From assembly GCA_934365195.1 (NCBI GenBank), contig CAKRNA010000008.1:3995-67994 (forward strand): a DNA stretch of 64,000 bases, read 5' to 3'. Shown here piece after piece: positions 1 through 11,296 of the stretch; positions within the stretch are counted from its first letter, which is position 1, and every line of letters begins with the position of its first letter. The stretch is from an uncultured Clostridia bacterium. Lineage in GTDB: Bacteria; Bacillota; Clostridia; Christensenellales; CAAEEZ01. Under the pieces are notes generated by a model. The model saw only the letters and a list, made by a program, of their open reading frames with translations, ran no database searches and was not told the DNA's origin. The position numbers and the translations under genes are program-made.

Positions 1-93
1 GACGACCAAGCAATCGTCCGTCGCAACTACACCAAAGAGCAACTTGCCGAGATGTTCCCGGAAATCGACAATTTCGACAATTTGGAATTTTAG
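1..93 (+). CDS. 3' end of an ORF that starts upstream of the window (ends ...EIDNFDNLEF*)
   Basis: Frame 1 is open from base 1 to TAG at 91-93. No recognisable motif. Confidence 0.4.
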   Translation, partial: DDQAIVRRNYTKEQLAEMFPEIDNFDNLEF

Positions 94-125
94 GAGGGCG
101 TAGCAAAAGCAATGGCGTTAAGTTG

Positions 126-219
126 GGGCTAGCAACGTAGCCAACAAGCAGCGTTGACAACCGGGGTTAAACAACGTGGTTAAAAATCTGGGCGCATTGC
201 TGCGTTAAATATCGAGGTC
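126..219 (+). repeat. Copy 1 of the conserved intergenic module (GGGCTAGCAACG leader plus 64-bp core GACAACCGGGGTTAAACAACGTGGTTAAAAATCTGGGCGCATTGCTGCGTTAAAxATCGAGGTC)
   Basis: The core at 156-219 is near-identical to 7033-7096 and 8266-8329. It lies directly upstream of the RBS of the 237 CDS. Confidence 0.85.
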
Positions 220-236
220 AAAAATAAGGAGGTAAT

Positions 237-713
237 ATGACACAAAAGAAAAACAAAAAGAAACACCTATCACTACTACAAACGCTTTTTCAACGAGCCA
301 AAAACAATAACATAGTAAATCCTATAATCGTCAATACAAAAAGACATAGAGATTCTCAAGGTAACCACCCGCACATCATTATTGAAGATATTGACGATAA
401 ACACATATCGGTAGGCTTATCAACTCATTCAAAAAAAGGAAAGAGTAAAAAAGCCGGTAATAATTATTCTTTAGATATCAATCCGCTATCACACGATACA
501 AGACACTCTTATATGCGTAGACAAGGTACGGTTGATAAAAAAAGAAATTATTTTCAATCAGAACTAGGAGTAATGTCTGAAAAAGATTATAAACAAGCAA
601 AACACTATGCGGACAATGCAAAAGTTAAATACCTAAATACAAATAAAAATAAAAAAAATAGTAACACAAGTCCAAAAACTCACACGAGTAATAAGACGGA
701 CTCAAATAACTAA
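237..713 (+). CDS. Lysine-rich basic protein, unknown function (distant paralog of 8373-8903)
   Basis: RBS AAGGAGG 7 nt upstream. K-rich N and C termini. The central HPHIIIEDIDDKHISVGLSTH core is reminiscent of the HHFALYKENGRIRAVRLTH core in 8373-8903. Confidence 0.6.
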   Translation: MTQKKNKKKHLSLLQTLFQRAKNNNIVNPIIVNTKRHRDSQGNHPHIIIEDIDDKHISVGLSTHSKKGKSKKAGNNYSLDINPLSHDTRHSYMRRQGTVDKKRNYFQSELGVMSEKDYKQAKHYADNAKVKYLNTNKNKKNSNTSPKTHTSNKTDSNN

Positions 714-841
714 GTCGGCGTTACTATCTATAAATAAAATATCAAATAATATCTACCGTTGTCAACTATTTAATTAAAAAATCTACGAATAGAAGACCTA
801 AAAAGAAAAATTGCTGGCGAGCAAAAACGCTGGAGGTAAAT

Positions 842-1045
842 ATGAAAATTCGTATTATGGGAACACCCGAAGAATTGAAAAGCGCTGAAACTTACTACAA
901 AGCGCTACGTAAACAGGATTACGTCAATTACGTAGAGATATCTAAGCCGTATCCAAACAGAAACGGCAGTCAATTAAGCAGACTTTACGTAGAAGTAATT
1001 TGCAAAGATTGTACACCTAATTCGCTTTTAATAAAGAGCGAATAA
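842..1045 (+). CDS. Small protein resembling the DUF3970-type family of Firmicute phages/plasmids (from memory)
   Basis: RBS GGAGG. The pattern MKIRIMGTPEEL...SKPYPNRNGSQLSRLYVEV matches the recalled family pattern xRLxGTxEE...S.PY.NRG.S...RVYxxV. Confidence 0.5.
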   Translation: MKIRIMGTPEELKSAETYYKALRKQDYVNYVEISKPYPNRNGSQLSRLYVEVICKDCTPNSLLIKSE

Positions 1046-1058
1046 AGGAGGTATTGAA

Positions 1059-1184
1059 ATGCTGACGATAATTCTTTTGCTTTTGCTAAGCGTAAACAAA
1101 AAAGACGAAATAAAAACGTACGGACACCGTGCGGACGACATTGATTTTCTACGAGGTGCTTATGGAAAGAATACTACTAGATAA
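1059..1184 (+). CDS. Possible 41-aa peptide with hydrophobic N-terminus (MLTIILLLLLSVNKK...)
   Basis: Very good RBS AAAGGAGGT 7 nt upstream of the ATG. It is below the ORF-track size cutoff and overlaps the next ORF out of frame. Confidence 0.3.
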   Translation: MLTIILLLLLSVNKKDEIKTYGHRADDIDFLRGAYGKNTTR

Positions 1185-1422
1185 AGTGGACTACTCTAAA
1201 GTAGTGAATTTACCGGAGTTTGAAGTGCTCGAGCCTACCTTTTACGCTCACGTAGAGTACAGCGCTCCGTTTAATATCTACTATGCAACGATTACGTTTG
1301 AGAACAACACCGAAAACAGCGGCGCTTTTCCTACGTTAAACAACAAAAAAGAGGCGCTGGACAAAGTTATTGCGTTCCTTAAAAACGAACGCTCTGAATA
1401 CGACAGAGGTTTATATGACTAA
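1162..1422 (+). CDS. Hypothetical protein (start moved to MERILLDK)
   Basis: ORF 1129-1422. The internal ATG at 1162 is preceded by GAGGTG. Confidence 0.5.
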   Translation: MERILLDKVDYSKVVNLPEFEVLEPTFYAHVEYSAPFNIYYATITFENNTENSGAFPTLNNKKEALDKVIAFLKNERSEYDRGLYD

Positions 1423-1609
1423 ACAAGATTTAATCAATACGAAATTTGAAATTGAAGAAAACTGCAAGGGCGCTTGTGCCGATTGCAACGTTAAAAGAAA
1501 ATGCGAGCGAGTGTATCAACGCTACAATCTATCTTTTTACAGCGCAAATGATATTAAAACGAACTTTGCACTTAACACAATAGACGAGGTGGGAAATGAA
1601 AGAAATTAA
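1415..1609 (+). CDS. Small Cys-rich protein (CKGACADCNVKRKC), unknown function
   Basis: ORF 1370-1609. The likely start is MTKQDL at 1415, after AGAGG. It overlaps the previous stop. Confidence 0.5.
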   Translation: MTKQDLINTKFEIEENCKGACADCNVKRKCERVYQRYNLSFYSANDIKTNFALNTIDEVGNERN

Positions 1610-1775
1610 AACTCACCTATATGAAATAACTAAAAAAGAGATAAAAGAACTTGACGAAGAAACTCAAGTATTAGTTTTTAACGCCTTTGATATTAAGTAT
1701 TACATTGAAAAACCTAGCAAGGCGCTTCTATACTCTGCTTCTTCCTGTTACTTTTTCCTTTTTGATAAAGAATAG
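1596..1775 (+). CDS. 59-aa hypothetical protein (MKEIKTHLYEITKKEIKELDEE...)
   Basis: ATG at 1596 preceded by GAGGTGGGA. It fills the gap to the next gene and is just under the ORF-track cutoff. Confidence 0.45.
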   Translation: MKEIKTHLYEITKKEIKELDEETQVLVFNAFDIKYYIEKPSKALLYSASSCYFFLFDKE

Positions 1776-1791
1776 CCAAAGGAGGTAAATT

Positions 1792-2181
1792 ATGGCAACA
1801 AAAAAACCGAGCAAACCAAAAGCAAAGCCACAAAAGGCTAAAAAGACAACTGCTAACCCACGGAATCCATACATACAAAACGATACTTTTTGGCGTGGGA
1901 TATTCCATTTTTTCGGCAACAAAAAAAGAACCGGCAAATATGGTTCTTCAAAGTTTGGAAAAAAATACACAGTCAACGCAACGACGCATTTGTCCAGGGA
2001 TAATGAAATAATCACCGCTACCGTTTACAATGCTAACGGCAAATTAGTTTCAACGCATAGCGGGACAGATTTAGTAGACGCTGTAAAACCCGCTCTTACT
2101 AAGGCAGGGCTTAAAGTTAAACCCTACAACCCATTTTATACTGAAAGAAAAAGGAGGAAGAAAAATGGCAAATCAAACTAG
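1792..2181 (+). CDS. Basic protein with K/P-rich N-terminus and KRRKK C-terminus, unknown function (possible nucleic-acid binder)
   Basis: RBS AAAGGAGGT. Composition only. Confidence 0.6.
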   Translation: MATKKPSKPKAKPQKAKKTTANPRNPYIQNDTFWRGIFHFFGNKKRTGKYGSSKFGKKYTVNATTHLSRDNEIITATVYNANGKLVSTHSGTDLVDAVKPALTKAGLKVKPYNPFYTERKRRKKNGKSN

Positions 2182-2950
2182 AAAAAACACTAAAGCAAGA
2201 ACTAGCGCTCCAACAGTGCAAAGGATATCAAAAGAAGAATTTAATAAACTACGTAAGCGTAGTATTCGCAATAAATTTATTGCCGGTATATGCACGTTTG
2301 TTTTAGGCGTTGGTGCCGGCGCAGGCGCATACTTCGGCATTAAATCCGCCGTGGATAAGAAAAACCCCGGCACGACTCCTCCACCTATACAGCAAGAGCA
2401 AGAAGTAACTAATAAAAACGTTCATTATTCTAGCACGAACGATATTATAGGCGAGGCTTCACAAACATATACCGACGAATATATTAAGTTTTGGAAAAAC
2501 TATGCACAAGAGTTTCACAAGGCGTATTTTGAGAAAGACGTCACGATAGAATTGCCTATAAATATTAGACTTTTCAAAGGCGTTAATCTCGGCGATGAAG
2601 AATATGTCGTGCCGATTGTTACCGAGTACGTGGGCACTATTAGTCTAGATAAGATAGTGGTTAGAGGTGCTTACCTTGATAATGAGTTATCTACAAGATT
2701 AAAAATAAGCGAAGAAGATATCGCTAAAATCTTCCCTGAAACCGCCGGGGCAAAAATACTTCAATGTATGGCATTAAACGGCGGTGAGCCGGAAGAGAAA
2801 GCGGGACTGGTATACAAGTTCGGTAACTACGTTTTATACGTTACTAACTTTAGAGAGTTGGACAAGTTACAAATCGAAATTGCTAGTTATAAAGACCAGT
2901 ACATTTCTAAAGAAATAACTGAGTTAGATTTCTCAGTAACGATAGCGTAA
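2165..2950 (+). CDS. Single-pass (N-in) membrane protein with basic cytoplasmic tail, (GA)n-containing TM and external domain
   Basis: TM segment FIAGICTFVLGVGAGAGAYFGIKSAVDKKNPG. Paralogous N-terminus to the next gene. Confidence 0.65.
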   Translation: MANQTRKNTKARTSAPTVQRISKEEFNKLRKRSIRNKFIAGICTFVLGVGAGAGAYFGIKSAVDKKNPGTTPPPIQQEQEVTNKNVHYSSTNDIIGEASQTYTDEYIKFWKNYAQEFHKAYFEKDVTIELPINIRLFKGVNLGDEEYVVPIVTEYVGTISLDKIVVRGAYLDNELSTRLKISEEDIAKIFPETAGAKILQCMALNGGEPEEKAGLVYKFGNYVLYVTNFRELDKLQIEIASYKDQYISKEITELDFSVTIA

Positions 2951-2959
2951 AGGTTAATA

Positions 2960-3592
2960 ATGAAAAAAGTAAAAAACAGCAAAACGAAACCCGCAACGTC
3001 GAAAAAAGTGCCGCATAAAAGAGGTATAAAAATATTTATAACAATCCTATGCGTTTTTGTATTAGGTGCCGGCGCCGGCGCCGGTGCGTTCTACGGCATT
3101 AAATCCGCCTTAAACAAAAAAACTGAAACGTACGTTGTAAATAATTTAAGAGTTAGTAAAGAAAACGCTATGAATTATTATGGAGTTACCTATATAGATA
3201 CTAACAATATGTACCCCGTTCCGTTTAATATCAATTTAACTTGTATAGATAAAACTAGAGGCGTTGTTACTAACGTCGTATTTGAAAATAGTATTGCTTT
3301 TACAATATATGAGGCTGACGGCGGATTTGTTGCTATTAACCTTAAAAAACTATTTAAAGAGAACAATATTGAACTTCCTACAAGGAGCGTAGGGGAAACG
3401 ATACATAAGTGGTGGAACTTAAAAGAACAGTATCTAGACGGGCACTTTTTCTACTTTTATGACGGAGGAGGATATAATATCTTCTCGGATAGTTTTTTTA
3501 AAGAAATAGAATTTACTGCTGACTTTGCTCTTTTAATCTATTCTATTTATTTAGGAAAAGCAAAAGATATGAATTTTACTATTTTAATTTAA
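2960..3592 (+). CDS. Single-pass membrane protein, N-terminal paralog of 2165-2950
   Basis: TM segment IFITILCVFVLGAGAGAGAFYGIKSALNKKTE, the same motif as the upstream gene. Confidence 0.65.
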   Translation: MKKVKNSKTKPATSKKVPHKRGIKIFITILCVFVLGAGAGAGAFYGIKSALNKKTETYVVNNLRVSKENAMNYYGVTYIDTNNMYPVPFNINLTCIDKTRGVVTNVVFENSIAFTIYEADGGFVAINLKKLFKENNIELPTRSVGETIHKWWNLKEQYLDGHFFYFYDGGGYNIFSDSFFKEIEFTADFALLIYSIYLGKAKDMNFTILI

Positions 3593-3605
3593 AAGGAGGA
3601 ATAAT

Positions 3606-4853
3606 ATGAAAAAAAGTACATATAAAACCGCCACTATAATAACAGTAATACTTTGCTTGTTCACGCTAGGTTTAGCGTGGACAAGTGACTGGTTTACTAA
3701 CTGGAATACGGCGGAATGGACGAAAAAGTGGGAGCAACTGTTCGGCAACGAACAATCTAAGCCTAACCCTACCCCACCGGGCGACGATACGCCTACTAAC
3801 CCGGGCACTCCTAAACCGCCCGTTGATAATGACGTTGTCGCTATATCGGGTAAAGGCGATAATATGCTAGCAGGCAAAACGTACGATATGGACAACTTTG
3901 CTTATGTTTGTTCTGAAAACTCTGTTAACAAAACAATAACGTTAAATGCTACAGTTGAACCCGAGAACGCTACAGATAAAAACAATATACGCTGGAAAGT
4001 CGAATGGGTAAATCCTAACGTAGGATTTGCAAACGGCAAAAAAGTAACCGATTATATCACTATCAAGCAAGATACCACTAATCCGGCAATATGCAAAGTT
4101 AGTTATCAACAAGATTTTGGAAGCAAAATTAAAGTAGTTGCTTATATATATACTAATCCTACCGTTAATGCCGAATGCACGGTCGATTGTGTCCAAAAAT
4201 TCATACATTTTAACGCCGACGGAGCAGTTCCTTTATTCGCTGATTTTAACGGAAATACTTTTCCTAAAAACGATACCGGTAGTAACGGTTATAATATATT
4301 TTTGGCAGCATATTTAATGTCTGTATATAATTTTGAAGATTATACTCCCGGGAAAGGTGGAATAAATGTTAATCCTGATGATTATAAAAATAAAAAAATA
4401 GGCTTCTTCTATAATCAATCAATAGGTACTATTTCAAACGATATAACTTCTGCTGAAATTACCTATGCGTTAACTCCTGAATTTAAACAGTTTATAGATA
4501 GCCAAGGTTGGACTTCGGAAGTATCTACATATACCATTTCGTTGAACACAAAATCTAACGATATTATCTACAATTATCCTGAGGGTAATATCTCGTATAA
4601 AACTATTTCTACAGAGAATACATACGTTACTATGAACGATATCTATAAAAAGTTTTTTAACGTTACTTCTAATAATGATTTAAAAGCAGTCTATGATTGG
4701 ATGAAAACGGAAGGCAATAAGGCTTTTACTGAAACGATTGTTTTTCACAATAATTTTGAAGATATAACTTTTAGTGATGTGATTAACCTTGATATTTATG
4801 TAGATATCCCAGCAACTAACATAAACATTGACCAAGGCAACATTAAAGTATGA
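3606..4853 (+). CDS. Membrane-anchored protein with Pro/Thr-rich linker and Ig-like-looking external domain(s)
   Basis: RBS AAGGAGGA. N-terminal TM followed by PNPTPPGDDTPTNPGTPKPP. The rest is unknown. Confidence 0.65.
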   Translation: MKKSTYKTATIITVILCLFTLGLAWTSDWFTNWNTAEWTKKWEQLFGNEQSKPNPTPPGDDTPTNPGTPKPPVDNDVVAISGKGDNMLAGKTYDMDNFAYVCSENSVNKTITLNATVEPENATDKNNIRWKVEWVNPNVGFANGKKVTDYITIKQDTTNPAICKVSYQQDFGSKIKVVAYIYTNPTVNAECTVDCVQKFIHFNADGAVPLFADFNGNTFPKNDTGSNGYNIFLAAYLMSVYNFEDYTPGKGGINVNPDDYKNKKIGFFYNQSIGTISNDITSAEITYALTPEFKQFIDSQGWTSEVSTYTISLNTKSNDIIYNYPEGNISYKTISTENTYVTMNDIYKKFFNVTSNNDLKAVYDWMKTEGNKAFTETIVFHNNFEDITFSDVINLDIYVDIPATNINIDQGNIKV

Positions 4854-4876
4854 TAACACTTATACTTCAATTCATA

Positions 4877-4963
4877 ATGCCTATTTTCATAGGTATTTTT
4901 GGAATTTTTACTGTTAGTTTACTTTACGTAGCAATACTTTTAGTTATTGCTAAATCAAAATGA
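4877..4963 (+). CDS. Possible 28-aa hydrophobic peptide MPIFIGIFGIFTVSLLYVAILLVIAKSK
   Basis: It fills the 4854-4972 gap as a single TM with a basic C-terminus. No convincing RBS. Confidence 0.25.
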   Translation: MPIFIGIFGIFTVSLLYVAILLVIAKSK

Positions 4964-4972
4964 GAGGTACTT

Positions 4973-6982
4973 ATGCAAAAGAAAAAACTATTAGTAGTAA
5001 TAACGTTGATATGCCTACTATCTACTATGTTAGTAGGCGCTACGTCTTTTGCGTTTGCTCAAGATAGTTTCGACACCTCTAACGTTATGGACGACCTGTC
5101 CACCGCTGACGGATTCAATCTTTTAGAATATCGTCCCGACAACCAAGGCGAATTAACGTTATGTAATTTTGTCGAGTATGGTTTTAATTATAAGCAAGAT
5201 AATTCCAACAATTATGGACTATATTTTTACGTGTACAATCCACGACTTATAGATTTTGACACTAAAACTAATCGTAATACAGTTTCGTTAGCAGTAACTA
5301 ACAATGGAATAACTAGCGAGTACAAAACCTACGAATTACAATTCTTAAGCAAATCGACGAAAAAAGATGATAACCAACTATATACAGATAACCTTTTTTA
5401 CAAATTTAAGGTAAAAAATGCAGAAGAAATATTAAAACTTGTAGACAAAAACGCCAGGATTTATAATATCGCTTCTATTGAATTGTTAACTAAAGGCTCT
5501 ACAACGTTGAAAGATTATCAAACCGGAGGAGTATATACTGTAACTGGTTATGCTAAAGGGCTAGGTAATGGCAATACAACTTCGTCTTTACATCAAACTA
5601 TTAGCGAACTTTTAACAATGGAACTTGAATGTCACACTACTTTTTTTAGAACGAATACGTCACCAAAAGGACGTTTTTACCAAAATCAAATAACAAGTAT
5701 GTACTTTGCTATACCAAACAAAATATTAGATACTTATGGCGGTGTTAATAAAATATACGCCCAAACGTATAAACAACGCAGCGCTCCGTTTATAGTAACT
5801 AAAGACAAAACCTTTTATAATAAATTAAAAAATTATCTAGGAGTTACTATGCCGATAGGAGGAGATAAAGACGTGGACGAATATTTAACGTCTTATTATA
5901 AAGAAGCAGTTGGAGGTACATACGTTTACGAATGGGGCTGGAATAACGGCAGGCTATGGGGAAGTGGTGAACCAACAAGTATTCCTCTACAAATAAAAAA
6001 TCGTCTAAGTTATCTTACCGGCGTTTTTTATACCGATAGTCCAGATATGTACGTGCCAGGTAAAGAAGTTATGAAAGAAATTTTTAACTACTCTGCTAGT
6101 TATAATAATGGCGAATGTTTTAATGGAGTGTCTAACGATTTACATAGTTCAACTTTAACTAAAGACCAAATGTATAAAAAATACATCGTCAGCGCCAACG
6201 ATAAAACCAACTTGTTAGACTATAACAGTACTCACAGTTGGTGGGACAAGTTAAACGATTATGGTTTAATCAATATTGGAACGCCAACAAACGAGGAATT
6301 TAAAAACGTAGAAGGTATTAGAACGGTATCTACTAAAGATATTATTAAAAACGTTACTGAACTATCAAAAAATCTTTTAGTTGCAGAGTGCGACGTAAAC
6401 AATTTATCCTCTTTTGTTATAAAAAATGAATTAGGTAATAAGACCACATATTTAATGCGTTTTGATTTCGACGACTACTATTCAATTCCTATGACTCACA
6501 AATATGAGGCAGGCAACGTATACGGCGCCGGAACGGCAGATACGTACCTATATCAAGAACCGCTCTTTTACGACTTACAAATTATCGAAGTTCAATTCTA
6601 CCGTGACGGCAAATACACTAATATCCCTGTAGTTTCCGACCCGACAAACTATGCCGGTGGTGGCACTAAACCTATAAATCCTAAATCGCTTTTAGAACTA
6701 ATTATTGATTGGTTAAAAAGAAACTGGAAATGGATATTACTAGCATTTATATGCTTGCTACTACTTCCGGTATTGCCTAACGTTATAGTTTTCGTGTTCA
6801 AAGTAGCCTTTGCGCTGATTAAATTACCTTTTATTTTAATTAGCAAAACGTTCTATGCGTTTAAAGAAAAGGCGGTTAAACGAGAACAGCAGCAAAACAT
6901 AAACGCCTTACAGTCTATTCAAGAACTGGAACGCTACGAGGAACGTCAAGCCCGGCGTGAAAGTATAATTAAGAAAAAATAA
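4973..6982 (+). CDS. Secreted 669-aa protein with cleavable-type signal peptide and C-terminal TM anchor plus charged coiled tail (the topology of a filamentous-phage g3p-type adsorption protein or an adhesin)
   Basis: The N-terminus MQKKKLLVVITLICLL...SFAFAQD and the C-terminal WKWILLAFICLLLLPVLPNVIVFVF. A hairpin CCCGGAC-N7-GTCCGGG lies just downstream. Confidence 0.7.
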   Translation: MQKKKLLVVITLICLLSTMLVGATSFAFAQDSFDTSNVMDDLSTADGFNLLEYRPDNQGELTLCNFVEYGFNYKQDNSNNYGLYFYVYNPRLIDFDTKTNRNTVSLAVTNNGITSEYKTYELQFLSKSTKKDDNQLYTDNLFYKFKVKNAEEILKLVDKNARIYNIASIELLTKGSTTLKDYQTGGVYTVTGYAKGLGNGNTTSSLHQTISELLTMELECHTTFFRTNTSPKGRFYQNQITSMYFAIPNKILDTYGGVNKIYAQTYKQRSAPFIVTKDKTFYNKLKNYLGVTMPIGGDKDVDEYLTSYYKEAVGGTYVYEWGWNNGRLWGSGEPTSIPLQIKNRLSYLTGVFYTDSPDMYVPGKEVMKEIFNYSASYNNGECFNGVSNDLHSSTLTKDQMYKKYIVSANDKTNLLDYNSTHSWWDKLNDYGLINIGTPTNEEFKNVEGIRTVSTKDIIKNVTELSKNLLVAECDVNNLSSFVIKNELGNKTTYLMRFDFDDYYSIPMTHKYEAGNVYGAGTADTYLYQEPLFYDLQIIEVQFYRDGKYTNIPVVSDPTNYAGGGTKPINPKSLLELIIDWLKRNWKWILLAFICLLLLPVLPNVIVFVFKVAFALIKLPFILISKTFYAFKEKAVKREQQQNINALQSIQELERYEERQARRESIIKKK

Positions 6983-7015
6983 ATAACAAGTTGTTTCCCC
7001 GGACAGTTAACGTCC

Positions 7016-7160
7016 GGGCTAGCAACGGTATCGACAACCGGGGTTAAACAACGTGGTTAAAAATCTGGGCGCATTGCTGCGTTAAACATCGAGGTCAGCA
7101 TACGTAGTCAATCTACGTTGTCAAAAAACGAGGAATACTATGAAAAATAATACTAAAAAA
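7016..7160 (+). repeat. Copy 2 of the intergenic module, extended form: 64-bp core, ACGTAG-N5-CTACGT palindrome, RBS, ATG and the first 7 codons (MKNNTKK)
   Basis: 7081-7160 differs from 8314-8393 at only 2 positions. Confidence 0.9.
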
Positions 7161-8249
7161 ATAAATAAAAAAAAGAAACCACAAAACGTTTTTCTAATAA
7201 AAACGCTAATACTTTTGTCAGTTTTATTTATAGTTTTATCAACTACTCTGTTTGGTGTGCTATATGGACTGCGAAACTTGATTTTTAAGCCACAGCCTCT
7301 ACCCCCACCTGAAACTCCCGTTGAAACTATAAGTGATTTAAAAAAATGCTATTTAGGAAACAGAAATAATTACGTCGAAATGCCGGATAAGAGTATAAAA
7401 TTTGTTATTAACGTAGACGGCGATTATAGGGTTGTTAAAGGCAATTTACCGTATGACAAGACGATGAATAACGATTTTTTAGCCTATGATTTTAGCATTA
7501 TATATCCGGACTTAAAAGAGTGTACGTTATTACATTACAACGCTTTTGGTAATTATAACGTTCCAAATGGTTCGGTTCACTTTTTACCATATACCCAACC
7601 GAAAGAAGAAACTTACCAACTATTTTTAAACATAGAAAATAATGAAAGTACTGTTTATGAGGGTAACTACGAACCTAATGTTGAACTAATCTATTTTAAA
7701 AGCGATGAAAAATATATTGAAGAAGCAGTTAGAAACATACGTCCTATTATAAAACCTGAAGGGAGCGTTCCACCTGTTGAATATATCATTGAGCCTACCC
7801 GCTTTAATAATAGTTGGCACGAAAAAAATATAAACGAAGATTTTTTTATCCCCACAGAAGCAGATGAAGGCGGATATATTCGTTGCCACTTTTTTTACAA
7901 AGGTGAGCACGTATATACTACAATAGGAATGCCTTTTGCCGGGTGGCAAGGTACTAATTTAATTTTTCCACACCACTATAATATCGATAAACGTAAATTT
8001 TTGCCCGACGACGGTTTTGTTTTTAAGGGGAAATTAAGATATTGCACGAATATCGGATATAAATATTATACCTTTAATTTTGATAAACATAATGACCAAC
8101 CTTCTGCCGTTGGTGTATATCAATTAACTTATGAAGGAGTAATAGGCGACGACGGAACACCACGCTTACGTGTTAAACGTTTTTTTGGTCCGGAGTATAC
8201 AAAAATGGAAAACAATTCTTATTCGGATATATGCTTCTTCTATTTTTAA
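7140..8249 (+). CDS. Single-pass membrane protein (K-rich tail, TM, 300-aa external domain), unknown function
   Basis: MKNNTKKINKKKKPQNVFLIKTLILLSVLFIVL.... The start lies inside repeat copy 2. Confidence 0.65.
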   Translation: MKNNTKKINKKKKPQNVFLIKTLILLSVLFIVLSTTLFGVLYGLRNLIFKPQPLPPPETPVETISDLKKCYLGNRNNYVEMPDKSIKFVINVDGDYRVVKGNLPYDKTMNNDFLAYDFSIIYPDLKECTLLHYNAFGNYNVPNGSVHFLPYTQPKEETYQLFLNIENNESTVYEGNYEPNVELIYFKSDEKYIEEAVRNIRPIIKPEGSVPPVEYIIEPTRFNNSWHEKNINEDFFIPTEADEGGYIRCHFFYKGEHVYTTIGMPFAGWQGTNLIFPHHYNIDKRKFLPDDGFVFKGKLRYCTNIGYKYYTFNFDKHNDQPSAVGVYQLTYEGVIGDDGTPRLRVKRFFGPEYTKMENNSYSDICFFYF

Positions 8250-8258
8250 CACACGCAC

Positions 8259-8393
8259 CGGTATCGACAACCAGGGTTAAACAACGTGGTTATAAAGCAG
8301 GGCGCATTGCTGCGTTAAACATCGAGGTCTACATACGTAGTCAATCTACGTTGTCAAAAAACGAGGAATACTATGAAAAATAATACTAAAAAA
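8259..8393 (+). repeat. Copy 3 of the intergenic module, extended form including ATG and 7 codons
   Basis: See copy 2. The core is at 8266-8329. Confidence 0.9.
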
Positions 8394-8903
8394 CCAAATA
8401 ATAAAACATACAAAAAGAAAAACAGCAAAAATACCGGCAAACAACGAACTATAAATAATTCGTTGTTTCGTCGGTGGTTAGCAAGGTTACGAATACATAA
8501 GCCGGTTAAGGAAGCGACAAGGAATAATCTGTTTAAAAACGATAACGATATGTATTTTGCAACGATTAAAGACGGATATATTATCCCAAAATCCAAAAAC
8601 CGCAATATCCACCATTTTGCCTTATATAAGGAAAATGGACGAATACGTGCAGTACGTCTAACTCATTTATACGAACCTGACAAAGTAAAAAAACTTGAAA
8701 ATAACCGCTTAAAAGAATTAAAAATTCCTACTTTTAAGTATCCTAGTGGGTATTTAGACAGTTATAAAGATAAAACTATTAACAATAAAAATATAAACCC
8801 AATGGATTCCAAGCACATTACTTCAATAAAAGACAACGTTTTTACTGAAAAGCAAAAAAGAGAAATTAGAAAATTTGTAAAATATAAAGATAATTACAAA
8901 TAA
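8373..8903 (+). CDS. Lysine-rich basic protein, distant paralog of 237-713
   Basis: It has the same MKNNTKK start as 7140. The core is HHFALYKENGRIRAVRLTH. Confidence 0.6.
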   Translation: MKNNTKKPNNKTYKKKNSKNTGKQRTINNSLFRRWLARLRIHKPVKEATRNNLFKNDNDMYFATIKDGYIIPKSKNRNIHHFALYKENGRIRAVRLTHLYEPDKVKKLENNRLKELKIPTFKYPSGYLDSYKDKTINNKNINPMDSKHITSIKDNVFTEKQKREIRKFVKYKDNYK

Positions 8904-9016
8904 AAAAATAGCACCGCCACTTGTGTAAGCCCAAAGTCAGACACGGGGGTGCTAATAAAGGTTAAACCTTTTCTCCATTTTTATTATACACAATAAATAG
9001 GAGGAAAGTCAACAAA

Positions 9017-10489
9017 ATGAACGAAATTACAAGAAAAAACTTAAAACGTACTCGTAGATATCGCAGTATTTCCACGTATATTGCGCTGTTTAACCTTTTA
9101 ATTGCTATTGCGGTTACTGTTCCCGGCGTTATGAATAAGTCGCTTACCTGGGCAAGTGGCACAGTTATATACGCTATCATAAGTCTTATCTTTATGATAG
9201 GTAGCCTCGGCTATCTAGCGCCCTACTTCATACTTAAACACAAGGTCAACAACACGCCGTACAAGGTAAATTCTTTACTTGTGCCGATTAAAGAGAAGTA
9301 TGCCCCGCCAAGAACCGGTAAAAGTAGCAGTATGTATCTTGAGGCGCAATTTATACAGCCTGTTTTAGAGTTTCAACTTAGGTACGACTACTGGTATTAC
9401 AAAAATCATATCGAAAAATGGACTAAAGAGGGCAAAACCGACAAACTAATCAAGTGGGAAGTAATAAAAGCCTCGTATGAGTTTTGGGCAAGCCACGATT
9501 ACGCCTGGTGCGTAATGAGTTCATTGCCTTGTACGTACAAAGGCAAACAAGTTTTACAACTTAAAAAAGGACACCTATTACAACAAATATGGGCGCCTCG
9601 TTACACTTTATGGCTTATAGACGAAGCAGGCAAGTTTATGCCCCAACAATCTTTTGAAAACAAGATTACTGCCCTAGTGGACACTTACCGTGAGATAGGA
9701 CACTTTAAGTTTTGGTGTGTTTACTGCGAGCAACGTCAAGATAATATACAAATAGACGTAAGGTGTATGACACAATTAACTCAATGTATGCAAGGTCAAA
9801 AGAACTTTTGTAAACCGCATTTAATAGAACACTATTATAACCGATTACAAAGCAAAGCAATACTGCCTAAAAACGAAAATAACGTAGCCCTAGCGCTTAA
9901 ACTTGAACGGCTTAAGAATTATATTGACAGCATAGGTTTTCGTGTGTGGTACTCTACAATATGGCAATCAAACGGCAAAGAATTTACTAGCACTAAACTT
10001 ACGCTTTACTGGACACAAAATTTAGATTTTGACTATGATAACGAGTGTATGTTCGTAGCCTACAAGGCTGAACCTGACACCGTTAAAGAAAACGTTGCGT
10101 GGGAAAATACGTTGCTTACCAGGGAACAAGCGGACGAATTTTTTGCTCCGTACAAAAAACCGGACAAAAACGAGAGTTTAACTACTGAAGAACGCATTAA
10201 AAAACTTATTCCGGCGCTGAATTTTGACGTAGAACTGCCAAAAGATATAAACGTAGGGTTATTGCTTACCGAAATAAATAAATCCGACCTAGTTAAACGT
10301 TGGAAGAATTTGAGCGTAATACTAAAACATTACGACGAAATAACGTCGGGTAAGTATCGAAACAAGTCGGAAGAGGAAATTGCTGAAATCTGCAAGCAAA
10401 AAAACCGAGAAAAAGCAAAATCGGAAAAAGTAGTGCAATCAATAGAGCCGTCAGACGAAGACGACGGCGAAGTGCATTGCTTTGATTAG
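9017..10489 (+). CDS. Membrane-associated P-loop NTPase, Zot / filamentous-phage pI-like (tentative)
   Basis: There are two N-terminal TM helices. Walker A is APPRTGKS. Walker B LWLIDEAGKF is followed by YREIGHFKFWCVYCEQRQDNI, which resembles the Zot pattern FIDECGxxWP ... hRHhGWDIxxxTQ. Family assignment is from memory only. Confidence 0.5.
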   Translation: MNEITRKNLKRTRRYRSISTYIALFNLLIAIAVTVPGVMNKSLTWASGTVIYAIISLIFMIGSLGYLAPYFILKHKVNNTPYKVNSLLVPIKEKYAPPRTGKSSSMYLEAQFIQPVLEFQLRYDYWYYKNHIEKWTKEGKTDKLIKWEVIKASYEFWASHDYAWCVMSSLPCTYKGKQVLQLKKGHLLQQIWAPRYTLWLIDEAGKFMPQQSFENKITALVDTYREIGHFKFWCVYCEQRQDNIQIDVRCMTQLTQCMQGQKNFCKPHLIEHYYNRLQSKAILPKNENNVALALKLERLKNYIDSIGFRVWYSTIWQSNGKEFTSTKLTLYWTQNLDFDYDNECMFVAYKAEPDTVKENVAWENTLLTREQADEFFAPYKKPDKNESLTTEERIKKLIPALNFDVELPKDINVGLLLTEINKSDLVKRWKNLSVILKHYDEITSGKYRNKSEEEIAEICKQKNREKAKSEKVVQSIEPSDEDDGEVHCFD

Positions 10490-10504
10490 GCTTTATTAAG
10501 CCAC

Positions 10505-10640
10505 AGTCGGCTTGCCGACTATAAAAATACTGCCGGGGGGCATAGGGGGGACAAGTCCCCCCTAAGTTACCCGGCATTATATAAATTCTCCCAACCGCTT
10601 TATGAAAAGGTGTCGGGAAAACGGCGAATTTATAATTCGC
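10505..10640 (+). other. Cluster of perfect GC-rich hairpins in the non-coding right arm of the element
   Basis: AGTCGGC-TT-GCCGACT at 10505-10520. A nested hairpin TGCCGGG..AGGGGGGAC-AA-GTCCCCCCT..CCCGGCA at 10531-10576. GCGAATT-TAT-AATTCGC at 10624-10640. Confidence 0.8.
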
Positions 10641-10778
10641 TGTTGTCCTGACCGCTTTTTTATGCAAAAATTTATGAATTTTTGAGGGAATTTTTGACGT
10701 TAAACAGCAGCGTTGAGTTCCTGGGCTAACAACGGTGCCGTTCAGCGCCGCCACCGTCCTGGGCTATGCACCGGAATA

Positions 10779-10850
10779 GACAACCGGGGTTAAACAACGT
10801 GGTTAAAAATCGAAGTTAATCAACGTAGTCAAACTACGTGGTTTTTATAA
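10779..10850 (+). repeat. Copy 4 (partial) of the intergenic module, with a variant palindrome ACGTAGT-CAA-ACTACGT and no gene downstream
   Basis: 10779-10811 is identical to the first 33 nt of the core. Degenerate GGGCTA / GTTAAAC pieces occur at 10696-10778. Confidence 0.8.
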
Positions 10851-10938
10851 TAAAAAAGGCTACCGCTTTGGTAACCTTTAAAATTTGATAATGAGTGTCA
10901 AAATGAGTGTATATCTTGATTTTACTTACTTTTTAAAC

Positions 10939-10983
10939 CTGTTAACCGCAGGGTCGTTGGTTCGAGTCCAACTTGGGGAGCCA
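10939..10983 (+). other. Displaced 3' half of tRNA-Asn(GTT), from the anticodon loop to CCA; putative attR of the left element
   Basis: The fragment reads CTGTTAA CCGCA GGGTC GTTGG TTCGAGT CCAAC TTGGGGA G CCA. There is no matching 5' acceptor or D-arm upstream. Confidence 0.75.
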
Positions 10984-10987
10984 AAAG

Positions 10988-11019
10988 GGTAATTTTTAAC
11001 GAAATTACCCTATTTTTTT
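10988..11019 (+). terminator. Rho-independent terminator of the former tRNA-Asn gene
   Basis: GGGTAATTT-N5-AAATTACCC followed by a T7 run. Confidence 0.7.
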
Positions 11020-11090
11020 GCAATTTTTCCTTGTTTTTCGCTCCCTTTTATAGCGTTTTACCGCTAAAAAACCTAATTTTTTTGATTAGT

Positions 11091-11122
11091 GGTGTCAAAA
11101 TCGGTGTCAATTTTGGTGTCAA
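11091..11122 (+). repeat. Three exact GGTGTCAA direct repeats with 12-bp period
   Basis: The repeats start at 11091, 11103 and 11115. Two related GAGTGT(C/A)A units with the same 12-bp period lie at 10893-10915, on the other side of the tRNA fragment. Confidence 0.8.
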
Positions 11123-11296
11123 AAAGCACATTTTTTGCTTATCTTTTTTTTATTTTTTTAATATTGAAGTTTTAAAAATGCTAGGATAATGCAAAACGCA
11201 ACTAATTACCCACCTAATAAAAAATACGATAACCATAATATCGTTACAAAAATCTAAAATATTTAATAAATAAAAAAACCGAAACAAGCCGTTTGC

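Follow-up and report, generated by a model that had tools for sequence, protein, structure and literature searches.

What does a small integrated element gain from carrying the same short intergenic sequence four times, twice with the beginning of a gene attached? The question is raised by a stretch of 64,000 nucleotides (nt) of contig CAKRNA010000008.1 from an uncultured Clostridia bacterium (contig positions 3,995 to 67,994, hereafter the window), the first 11 kb of which belong to an integrase-bearing element. A 27-mer, GACAACCNGGGTTAAACAACGTGGTTA, is present in four copies, at window positions 156, 7033, 8266 and 10779, all of them on the + strand, when none was expected (100 shuffles). 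Each copy proved to lie in an array of phased 13-nt units. We tentatively read these arrays as iteron-like binding platforms for one sequence-specific protein encoded by the element, serving also as patches for recombination, an interpretation that we favour at somewhat less than an even chance. The arrays and the features attached to them are the following.

140..236, + strand: array 1 (position A), 13-nt units from about 153 up to the ribosome-binding site (RBS) of a gene encoding 158 amino acids (aa).
6998-7018: GC hairpin of 7 bp ahead of array 2.
7004..7139, + strand: array 2 (position B), about nine phased 13-nt units running into the Shine-Dalgarno (SD) sequence (ACGAGG) of a 369-aa gene.
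7022..7160, + strand: left copy of a duplicated block, with 7/139 mismatches to 8255-8393 and sharp ends.
8255..8393, + strand: right copy of the duplicated block, consisting of array 3, the RBS and the first seven codons of a 176-aa gene; an extra copy, absent here in relatives.
10696..10853, + strand: array 4 (position C), degenerate units from 10698 and four clean units at 10789-10840, with no gene behind.

Over a 64-bp core, a single mismatch separates copies 1 and 2 and four mismatches separate copies 2 and 3; copy 4 agrees with the core over 33 nt without mismatch. Copies 2 and 3 continue into a 64-bp extension with two differences (2/80 if counted from 7081), and the open reading frames behind them (369 aa and 176 aa) both begin MKNNTKK, the proteins being otherwise unrelated. 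The ends of the duplicated block are abrupt: 22 of 40 positions mismatch immediately after codon 7, and similarity also drops to the left of 7022. An earlier interpretation made without database searches (the sequence-only reading) had reported the four copies, their positions, the 2/80 differences and the MKNNTKK starts, all of which were borne out on recount, as was its placement of copy 4, with no gene behind it, at the end of the element; the distance from copy 4 to the right attachment site (attR) is about 100 nt. The core and extension that it distinguished are real as sequence, but the division between them is arbitrary, all four copies being arrays of 13-nt units in strict register.

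The repeat is specific to the element. Outside the element, neither the 64-kb window nor the 10 kb on its left side contains a copy of GACAACCNGGGTTAAACAACGTGGTTA, and exact-pattern scans gave no match in 185,579 species genomes or in IMG/VR; a degenerate three-unit pattern retrieved only unrelated tandem repeats from IMG/VR. A genome-wide repetitive extragenic palindrome or miniature inverted-repeat transposable element, which the sequence-only reading had allowed for, does not fit: no 27-mer was found off the element in the sequences scanned, and weight-matrix matches outside it occur at the background rate.

Each module consists of four to nine phased 13-nt units (GTYAAnmAwCGwr), all on the coding strand. 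A position weight matrix, refined iteratively on 47 units, gives G1 T2 Y3 A4 A5 a m A w C10 G11 w r, so that a unit may be described as a contiguous conserved block of 9 nt (CGWRGTYAA) followed by a spacer of four variable bases; spacings from unit to unit are 13, 26, 39 or about 65 nt. In the 11-kb element part, 14 matrix matches score 12 bits or more, and each is on the + strand and inside one of the four arrays. The remaining 53 kb of the window has 6 such matches, and a control set of 80 phage loci encoding methyltransferase homologs (474 kb) has 17. For the strict motif GTYAAANNNCGNGG the counts are ten in the element, one in the remainder of the window and zero in the controls. Tandem Repeats Finder reports a period of 13 nt (4.3 copies) at copy 4, the sole period it reports at the window arrays, and a period of 39 nt (2.1 copies, score 108-117) in L005, a relative of the element described below, with none reported in the more distant L010. 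By the weight matrix, the strongest units follow a super-period of 38/39 nt (166/204 and 7043/7081/7120), with which the 39 nt x 2.1 of L005 and four repeats of 39 nt in L010 agree. The GTTAAAC words and the palindrome ACGTAG-N5-CTACGT pointed out in the sequence-only reading are present, as by-products of the tandem units: the former are unit heads and the latter is two successive unit tails. The last unit, GTCAAAAAACGAGG, is itself the SD sequence of the genes behind copies 2 and 3 (ACGAGG-N7-ATG), and a variant unit, GTCAAAAATAAGGAGG, is that of the gene behind copy 1.

This arrangement invites the view that each copy is a portable expression cassette, that is, an element-specific promoter and/or translation-initiation region for the gene behind it. 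Copies 1 to 3 end at an SD sequence and ATG with the last unit as the SD, and so does the array in the relative L004; in copies 2 and 3 and in L004 that unit includes GAGG and stops 6-7 nt short of the ATG. No intergenic gaps of the operon are longer than those holding arrays (123-157 nt), and there is a precedent in the 13-bp motifs of Cluster K mycobacteriophages, which hold an SD core 3-7 bp from the starts of unrelated genes (PMC3203893). However, only two or three of the approximately eight units per array are SD-like (GAGG), the rest being ACGTAG or ACGTTG. A consensus scan of the + strand found no sigma-70 -35/-10 pair in any copy, in agreement with the sequence-only reading: the -35-like hexamer stands 21 nt from the sole -10-like hexamer and varies at key positions (TTGACA, TCGACA or TAGACA). 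At copy 4 and at every position-C copy in relatives, a terminator hairpin follows in place of a gene, one relative's end copy even being inverted. In the distant lineage L010/L012, about 110 nt separate the array from the gene downstream, and that gene retains its own upstream region in the array-less sister L011 too. The autonomous promoter cassette proposed earlier is not supported, given the lack of a consensus promoter, the geneless copy 4 and the inverted end copy, and a portable expression cassette in the wider sense seems improbable.

Folding of the transcript offers no better account. RNA folding of copies 1 to 3 is significant on neither strand (z-scores of -0.25 to -0.7 for the + strand, +0.39 for the - strand), and among Rfam covariance models run on the whole window only two tRNAs reach threshold, the arrays having no match. 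The RNA-level 5' leader that had been suggested, taken as a structured RNA leader or riboswitch, was rejected on these grounds; given such z-scores, linear sites suit protein binding better than folded RNA does. A terminator scan of the + strand called nothing in copies 1 to 3; no terminator stands between array and gene at copy 1, and the 6-bp palindrome ACGTAG-N5-CTACGT between array and gene in copies 2 and 3 has no U tract. A terminator-like score appears at copy 4 alone, formed by the last two units and a T-run, and this feature is not kept in relatives. Two further candidates were set aside: an integron attC or other structured recombination site, there being no significant fold on either strand, and sigma-54-like and sporulation-sigma-like readings made by eye of GGGCGCATTGCTGCG and CATACGTAG, which are not conserved in relatives.

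The element that carries the arrays is inserted in tRNA-Asn, and its length of about 15.1 kb follows from the recurrence of a 113-nt tRNA repeat at window 10939-11051. This attR is 100% identical to the left attachment site (attL), a 113-nt repeat of the tRNA-Asn 3' end and downstream sequence at 5735-5847 of the source contig (L001), where the complete tRNA-Asn occupies 5704-5779. The window begins within the element, whose left part, on L001, comprises the complete tRNA-Asn, a tyrosine integrase, a cI-like helix-turn-helix (HTH) gene preceded by three GTACA-T6-GTAC palindromes (seen by eye), a 101-aa protein (b101), a second HTH gene, small open reading frames and a 274-aa protein whose gene runs to window position 93. 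The source contig (422 kb) encodes Spo0A, so the host is a Firmicute. All element genes in the window lie on the + strand, in a single long rightward operon. Further features of the element are as follows.

98..130, + strand: 3' remnant of a methyltransferase gene (GTAGCAAAAGCAATGGCGTTAAGTTGGGGCTAG), translated as VAKAMALSWG and a stop codon, directly upstream of array 1.
237..713, + strand: b158, a 158-aa basic protein and paralog of b101 (BLASTP E 7e-6), of a predicted MazF/PemK-like family.
7140..8249, + strand: 369-aa membrane-anchored cassette gene, between the two copies of the duplicated block.
8373..8903, + strand: b176, a 176-aa basic protein with homologs P0082 and P0083.
10510..10659, + strand: two very stable hairpins 3' of the ATPase gene (minimum free energy -65 kcal/mol, z -6.0), with an AT-rich stretch after them.
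10855..10879, no strand assigned: hairpin closing the right end of the element, terminator-like on the - strand and conserved in L004, L009 and L103.
10890..10910, + strand: putative arm-type sites of the integrase, in the form of tandem GAGTGTCAAAAT repeats; the identical 21-mer recurs beside the integrase gene at attL.
10939..11051, + strand: attR, repeating 113 nt made up of the tRNA-Asn 3' end and adjoining downstream sequence.

No gene of the element in the window received a Pfam or PHROG assignment, apart from a sub-threshold Zot match of a 490-aa ATPase that has Walker A and B motifs and N-terminal transmembrane segments. PADLOC gave no matches, and sequence searches of the PDB found none for the ATPase, for the 274-aa protein or for the methyltransferase. 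The element, tail-less and capsid-less by annotation, appears to be inovirus-like, and distant elements sharing b101 and a 669-aa protein with it carry a G2P-type rolling-circle Rep (PF23343), which supports such a nature without proving it. The double hairpin is kept with compensatory changes in L004, L005, L007, L009 and L103, and the AT-rich stretch is conserved also; region 10510-10659 is a candidate single-stranded DNA (ssDNA) origin or packaging signal.

Relatives of this element are few. Searches of phages gave no matches, whether by megablast with the 11-kb region (GenBank phages) or by tblastn with b101 and the 669-aa protein. For the 490-aa ATPase, viral collections, IMG/VR included, and one-genome-per-species collections likewise returned no relatives, and just three protein relatives and one metagenome locus were found. 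The lineage is rare, with almost no annotated relatives in phage, viral-contig and species-genome collections, and those available for comparison are a handful of metagenome contigs (L004, L005, L006/L007, L009 and L103-L107). One of these, L103 (12,939 nt), begins and ends inside the homolog of the 274-aa gene and contains an attP with a tRNA-Gln fragment; being circularly permuted, it is probably the episomal (excised or replicative) circular form of an L009-like element.

Three array positions are conserved among the relatives. At position A, the array follows the 209-aa methyltransferase gene or its remainder and precedes the first gene of the long operon (L005, L103, L107 and window copy 1). 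At position B, it follows the homolog of the 669-aa gene and heads a region in which gene content differs from relative to relative (L004, L009, L103, L107 and window copy 2). At position C, it lies between the double hairpin with the AT-rich stretch and the closing hairpin, the arm-type repeats and the attachment site (L004, L009, L103 and window copy 4), and the L005 array at this position is the inverted one. Window copy 3 is supernumerary.

The distant lineage L010/L012 contains four 39-nt repeats with the same head, GTTAAAAnnCGAGGT, directly after a methyltransferase gene. Apart from b101 (61% identity) and a 67-aa protein, this lineage is linked to the window element by nothing more than weak similarity of structural genes. 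The methyltransferase of L010/L012 is 72% identical to that of L005; the 209-aa proteins of L010 and L005 end in AMALSWG before the stop codon and match the phrog_757 DNA methyltransferase (E 1.4e-43), and the gene is intact in L005, L107, L010 and L012. Because 98-130 encodes the C-terminus of this protein, the gene was evidently deleted in the lineage of the window, leaving ten codons, while the array was kept. The simplest reading of the comparison is that methyltransferase and array moved jointly from a window-type element into the L010 lineage. That the array might be a general 3' appendage of the methyltransferase family was rejected, with no motif match in the 80 control phage loci; the family is common in tailed phages.

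Within genomes, the arrays evolve in concert. The window copies all carry one variant (GACAACCGGGGTTAAAC...GGGCGCATTGCTGCG; …GACAACCGGGGTTAAACAACGTGGTTAAAAATCTGGGCGCATTGCTGCG…), the copies of L004, L009, L103 and L107 all carry another, whatever their position (GGGCTAACCTACCGTATTYAATCGGGGGTCAA...; …GGGCTAACCTACCGTATTYAATCGGGGGTCAATCAACGTGGTCAAACTTCGAAGTCAAT…), and the internal copy of L009 is a chimera with an internal-type 5' flank and an end-type 3' part. Because lineage-specific variants are common to all copies of a genome, and because of this chimera, the copies are taken to be homogenised by copy-to-copy recombination. Conservation far above that of the flanking genes had been taken in the sequence-only reading to imply selection or gene conversion at the nucleotide level, and intragenomic exchange explains it best.

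The boundaries of gene gain, loss and replacement between relatives coincide with array edges. In L103 the methyltransferase gene is cut to 65 codons and fused into the array, and in L009, L103 and L107 a 366-aa gene is deleted beside the array, with its last 17 nt or so left behind. Remnants of 3' ends also flank array-less insertions, after the ATPase gene in L009 and after a 68-aa gene in L012, and the junctions look like the products of ordinary homologous and illegitimate recombination, not of site-specific cuts. The insertion in L009 (5290-5940) consists of two genes bracketed by a duplicate of the last ~17 nt of the ATPase gene. Of the recombination site swapping gene bodies that had been envisaged for the window, the swapping survives, bodies behind or beside arrays differing between relatives, whereas a dedicated site-specific role is unsupported by these ordinary-looking junctions.

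The direction of the duplication that produced copies 2 and 3 can be judged from the N-termini of homologs, MTNNNKP for the b176 type and MPKKTNKK for the 369-aa type. The b176 homologs P0082 and P0083 (64-72% identical) begin MTNNNKPLKNK…, and in L103 and L107 this gene stands directly behind array B; in L004, the counterpart of the 369-aa protein, with 32% identity along the whole body, opens with MPKKTNKKQT. We infer that the MKNNTKK-type start is native to the 176-aa gene, and that a copy of the 5' region of that gene (array, SD sequence and seven codons) came to precede the 369-aa cassette gene, replacing the start that the cassette gene had had before. Both N-termini are Lys/Asn-rich tails, which presumably tolerate such a swap. 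No population variant without the 369-aa gene was found, all six contigs with b176 having the same context. A parallel to window copies 2 and 3 is seen between L011 (9063-9239) and L012 (9035-9211), which have in common an upstream region and the first ~20-30 codons, followed by unrelated bodies (201 aa and 184 aa).

With so much exchange, the arrays might have no function of their own, being slippage-prone, minisatellite-like sequence that is spread and homogenised by recombination and tolerated in gaps. Copy-to-copy exchange and frequent illegitimate junctions would be expected of such sequence, and arrays are dispensable in some relatives. On the other hand, lineages with ATPases only 70-84% identical retain the same six unit positions (G1, T2, A4, A5, C10 and G11) along with the 13-nt phase, as does a lineage with almost no other detectable similarity, at distances where neutral non-coding DNA would be randomised, and the three array positions are conserved. 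L005 strongly avoids ACGT (5 occurrences versus ~19-27 expected), and its units have lost ACGT and kept GTCAA, a pattern that suggests selection to retain the array under restriction pressure. From these comparisons, the arrays appear to be under selection, and sequence with no function of its own is the least probable of the explanations considered.

A platform for protein binding would account for much of this. One element-encoded, sequence-specific protein would bind the units side by side; arrays bound at positions A and B would act as operator- or roadblock-type control points of the long operon, and the array at C as an accessory site near the attachment/origin region, while the shuffling of cassettes would be a side effect of recombination between array copies. 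The inc18 omega heptads, the Cox/Apl sites of P2/186 at promoter and attP, and the incA/incC iterons of P1 are multi-site regulator arrays, in which one short direct repeat recurs in several arrays on a small replicon, some before promoters and one at an attachment site or origin, and co-evolves with one protein. The 13-nt arrays resemble them in this layout; unlike them, the units have a pitch of 13 bp, as opposed to 7, ~10.5 or ~19-22 bp, and no promoters were identified. Of the portable regulatory cassette that the sequence-only reading had proposed, kept by gene conversion and tied to the swapping of gene bodies, the exchange and the swapping are retained here, and the promoter and the structured RNA leader are not.

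Several observations weigh against the binding platform. No binding protein has been identified for the arrays, and the likely cI operators are different palindromes (by eye). The 13-bp pitch is out of helical phase and unusual for replication iterons; the co-orientation of 16 of 17 arrays with transcription fits a role at the RNA or ssDNA level equally well; and the last unit doubles as an SD sequence. Arrays are missing from some relatives, L006/L007 being without B and C (the contigs do not cover A) and L005 without B. In L010/L012, the array comes and goes with the methyltransferase gene, the sister L011 having neither, and in that lineage it may be a passenger.

Replication offers a related role for tandem, regularly spaced direct repeats. 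The arrays could be iterons in the strict sense, with an origin at array A beside a putative initiator (the 274-aa protein) or at array C beside the hairpins and the AT-rich stretch, the extra arrays serving for handcuffing or as rolling-circle signals. Array A comes right after the 274-aa gene, or after the methyltransferase gene inserted behind it, array C follows two conserved hairpins (z -6.0) and the conserved AT-rich stretch, and multi-locus iteron sets are established in iteron plasmids, which counts as support. An unrelated 13-bp array is found in the IMG/VR locus L102 upstream of an AAA_25 replication-type gene. In that locus (3480-3600), GTGGTCAAATTTC occurs three times together with inverted TGGTCA/TGACCA, ~200 nt upstream of the AAA_25 gene, an origin-like arrangement with the same pitch. 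Opposed to this interpretation are the lack of a recognisable replication domain in the 274-aa protein, the atypical pitch, the absence of arrays at the corresponding places in L006/L007 and L011, which nevertheless keep the hairpin region, and the subgenomic circles that direct repeats at a rolling-circle origin would yield. We regard replication iterons as a shade less probable again than an expression cassette.

A different alternative arose from an unplanned result, the predicted fold of b101. This protein (L001 7794-8099) has 77 unnamed homologs and no Pfam domain, with no antitoxin gene evident, and is the best-conserved protein of the element family, 61-65% identical across otherwise very divergent elements. 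Its AlphaFold2 model has a predicted local distance difference test score (pLDDT) of 91.5, and in Foldseek searches the top 50 PDB matches were all MazF-type endoribonucleases and the top viral matches PemK-like proteins or endoribonucleases. The arrays might accordingly be targets, at the level of RNA or (+)-ssDNA, of the predicted MazF/PemK-fold proteins of the element, that is, sites of cleavage or binding on the polycistronic mRNA or the packaged strand. In one variant they would be RNA repeats like those of type III toxin-antitoxin (TA) systems, sponging or inhibiting a nuclease encoded just downstream; in another they would be phage-programmed mRNA processing sites setting 5' ends just upstream of SD sequences. 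Paralogs of b101 stand directly behind arrays in two cases (b158 behind copy 1, and a 129-aa gene behind the internal array of L009), and the units are unstructured and strand-specific in 16 of 17 arrays.

The likeness to the type III systems toxIN, cptIN and tenpIN (PMC3401426) consists of tandem repeats directly upstream of the gene of a small basic protein, with b158 belonging to a family of predicted Kid/MazF-type fold. Published type III systems have repeats of 31-62 nt in 1.9-5.6 copies and toxins of 70-288 aa, ranges that accommodate both the 38/39-nt super-period and the 129-184 aa of the downstream proteins, and their toxin ToxN is a structural relative of Kid and MazF (PMC3401426). 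These systems differ from the arrays, which have no terminator before the gene (none at copy 1, and only the palindrome without U tract at copies 2 and 3), whose repeats are degenerate, not near-identical, which stand before unrelated genes or none, and whose downstream proteins have no similarity to ToxN, CptN or TenpN. Arrays also precede a membrane protein (copy 2), acidic proteins (L103, L107 and L005) or, at position C, no gene, and there are MazF-like paralogs without arrays, namely b101 itself and a 163-aa gene of L005. The b176 family has no hhalign relation to b101, and the structure predicted for it, at pLDDT 38.6, cannot be used. The coding sense strand of the element shows no avoidance of unit sub-motifs, such as protection from self-cleavage might produce, and PADLOC and Pfam gave no ToxN or PemK match. 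A reading of the H-P-H motif of b158 as that of an HUH nuclease was dropped, the second His not being conserved. Single-strand targets of MazF/PemK-fold proteins are, on balance, an unlikely explanation, though the main rival of the binding platform. Its most specific form, in which the predicted structures would point to single-strand (mRNA or packaged +) recognition arrays of a previously unrecognised MazF/PemK-fold family in inovirus-like prophages of gut Firmicutes, either a phage-borne relative of type III TA systems, a degenerate RNA repeat controlling the nuclease gene behind it, or a phage-programmed system cutting its own polycistronic mRNA at fixed 13-nt sites so that each gene gets a 5' end of its own, is somewhat more doubtful than that.

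Other features of the element and its surroundings were noted. The 274-aa protein (residues 172-234, L001 9546-9734) and the ATPase (residues 384-445, window 10166-10351) have a C-terminal module of ~60 aa in common (hhalign E 3.3e-5, probability 72%). The neighbouring 261-aa and 210-aa genes, which encode paralogous membrane proteins, contain a common 94-nt stretch (2270-2363 and 3029-3122, 71% identity) encoding the same Gly/Ala-rich transmembrane segment. A leader of roughly 200 nt upstream of the b101 gene (L001 7590-7800) folds strongly (-65.4 kcal/mol, z -4.06) and has no Rfam match. Just beyond attR, at 11091-11124, are three tandem GGTGTCAAAATC-like repeats that resemble the GAGTGTCAAAAT arm-type repeats, with HTH genes next to them; a second element, once inserted at this tRNA, may have left them behind. 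The element (window 1-10900) contains no AGCT, GATC, CATG or CGCG, versus 11-35 of each expected, and the host flank (11300-64000) also strongly avoids these tetramers (for example, 12 AGCT versus ~150). Relatives avoid other tetramers, L006 having no ACGT and L005 five ACGT and one GCGC, and these gaps look like restriction-site avoidance that follows each host.

Three families of phage repeats invite comparison with the arrays, taken here as binding platforms. The promoter-early stem-loop (PeSL) sequences of T4-type phages are mobile regulatory cassettes made of a strong sigma-70-like promoter and a terminator stem-loop, and in phi1/RB49 direct PeSL copies around one gene yield mini-circles (PMC2839356, PMC4122927). 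The arrays resemble them as short, near-identical multi-copy intergenic sequences that flank variable non-essential genes and offer patches of homology for insertion, deletion or replacement, copies 2 and 3 flanking the 369-aa gene; they differ in having tandem 13-nt units and neither promoter nor stem-loop, and in residing on a 15-kb integrative element as opposed to a 170-kb lytic myovirus. The start-associated sequences (SAS) and extended SAS (ESAS) of Cluster K mycobacteriophages are single asymmetric 13-bp sites, GGGATAGGAGCCC, with an SD core, ~10-20 per genome and absent from the host genome (PMC3203893). With SAS the arrays share an asymmetric 13-bp motif with an SD core, located a few bases from the starts of unrelated genes in one orientation with rare inversions, but they consist of 4-9 tandem units in 3-4 arrays per genome, one array lies off start codons, and most units are not SD-like. 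The stoperators of Cluster A mycobacteriophages are single asymmetric 13-bp sites shown experimentally to be bound by the immunity repressor (PMC9283540). Stoperators and array units alike are asymmetric 13-bp sites in the intergenic gaps of co-directional operons, oriented with transcription, matching within a genome and differing between lineages; unlike stoperators, the units form tandem arrays, and the operators of the cI-like repressor seem to be separate palindromes (by eye).

Few phage-specific intergenic repeat families are known (stoperators, SAS/ESAS and PeSLs), and each exposed unusual control or genome shuffling. The case described here unites strictly phased 13-nt arrays, three conserved positions, concerted evolution and the exchange of gene bodies behind a fixed RBS and start. 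Should the binder be found, it would reveal a control or processing system of barely known small integrative, probably filamentous, viruses of gut Firmicutes; and if the binder were the MazF-fold family, toxin-type RNases would be linked to phage gene expression.

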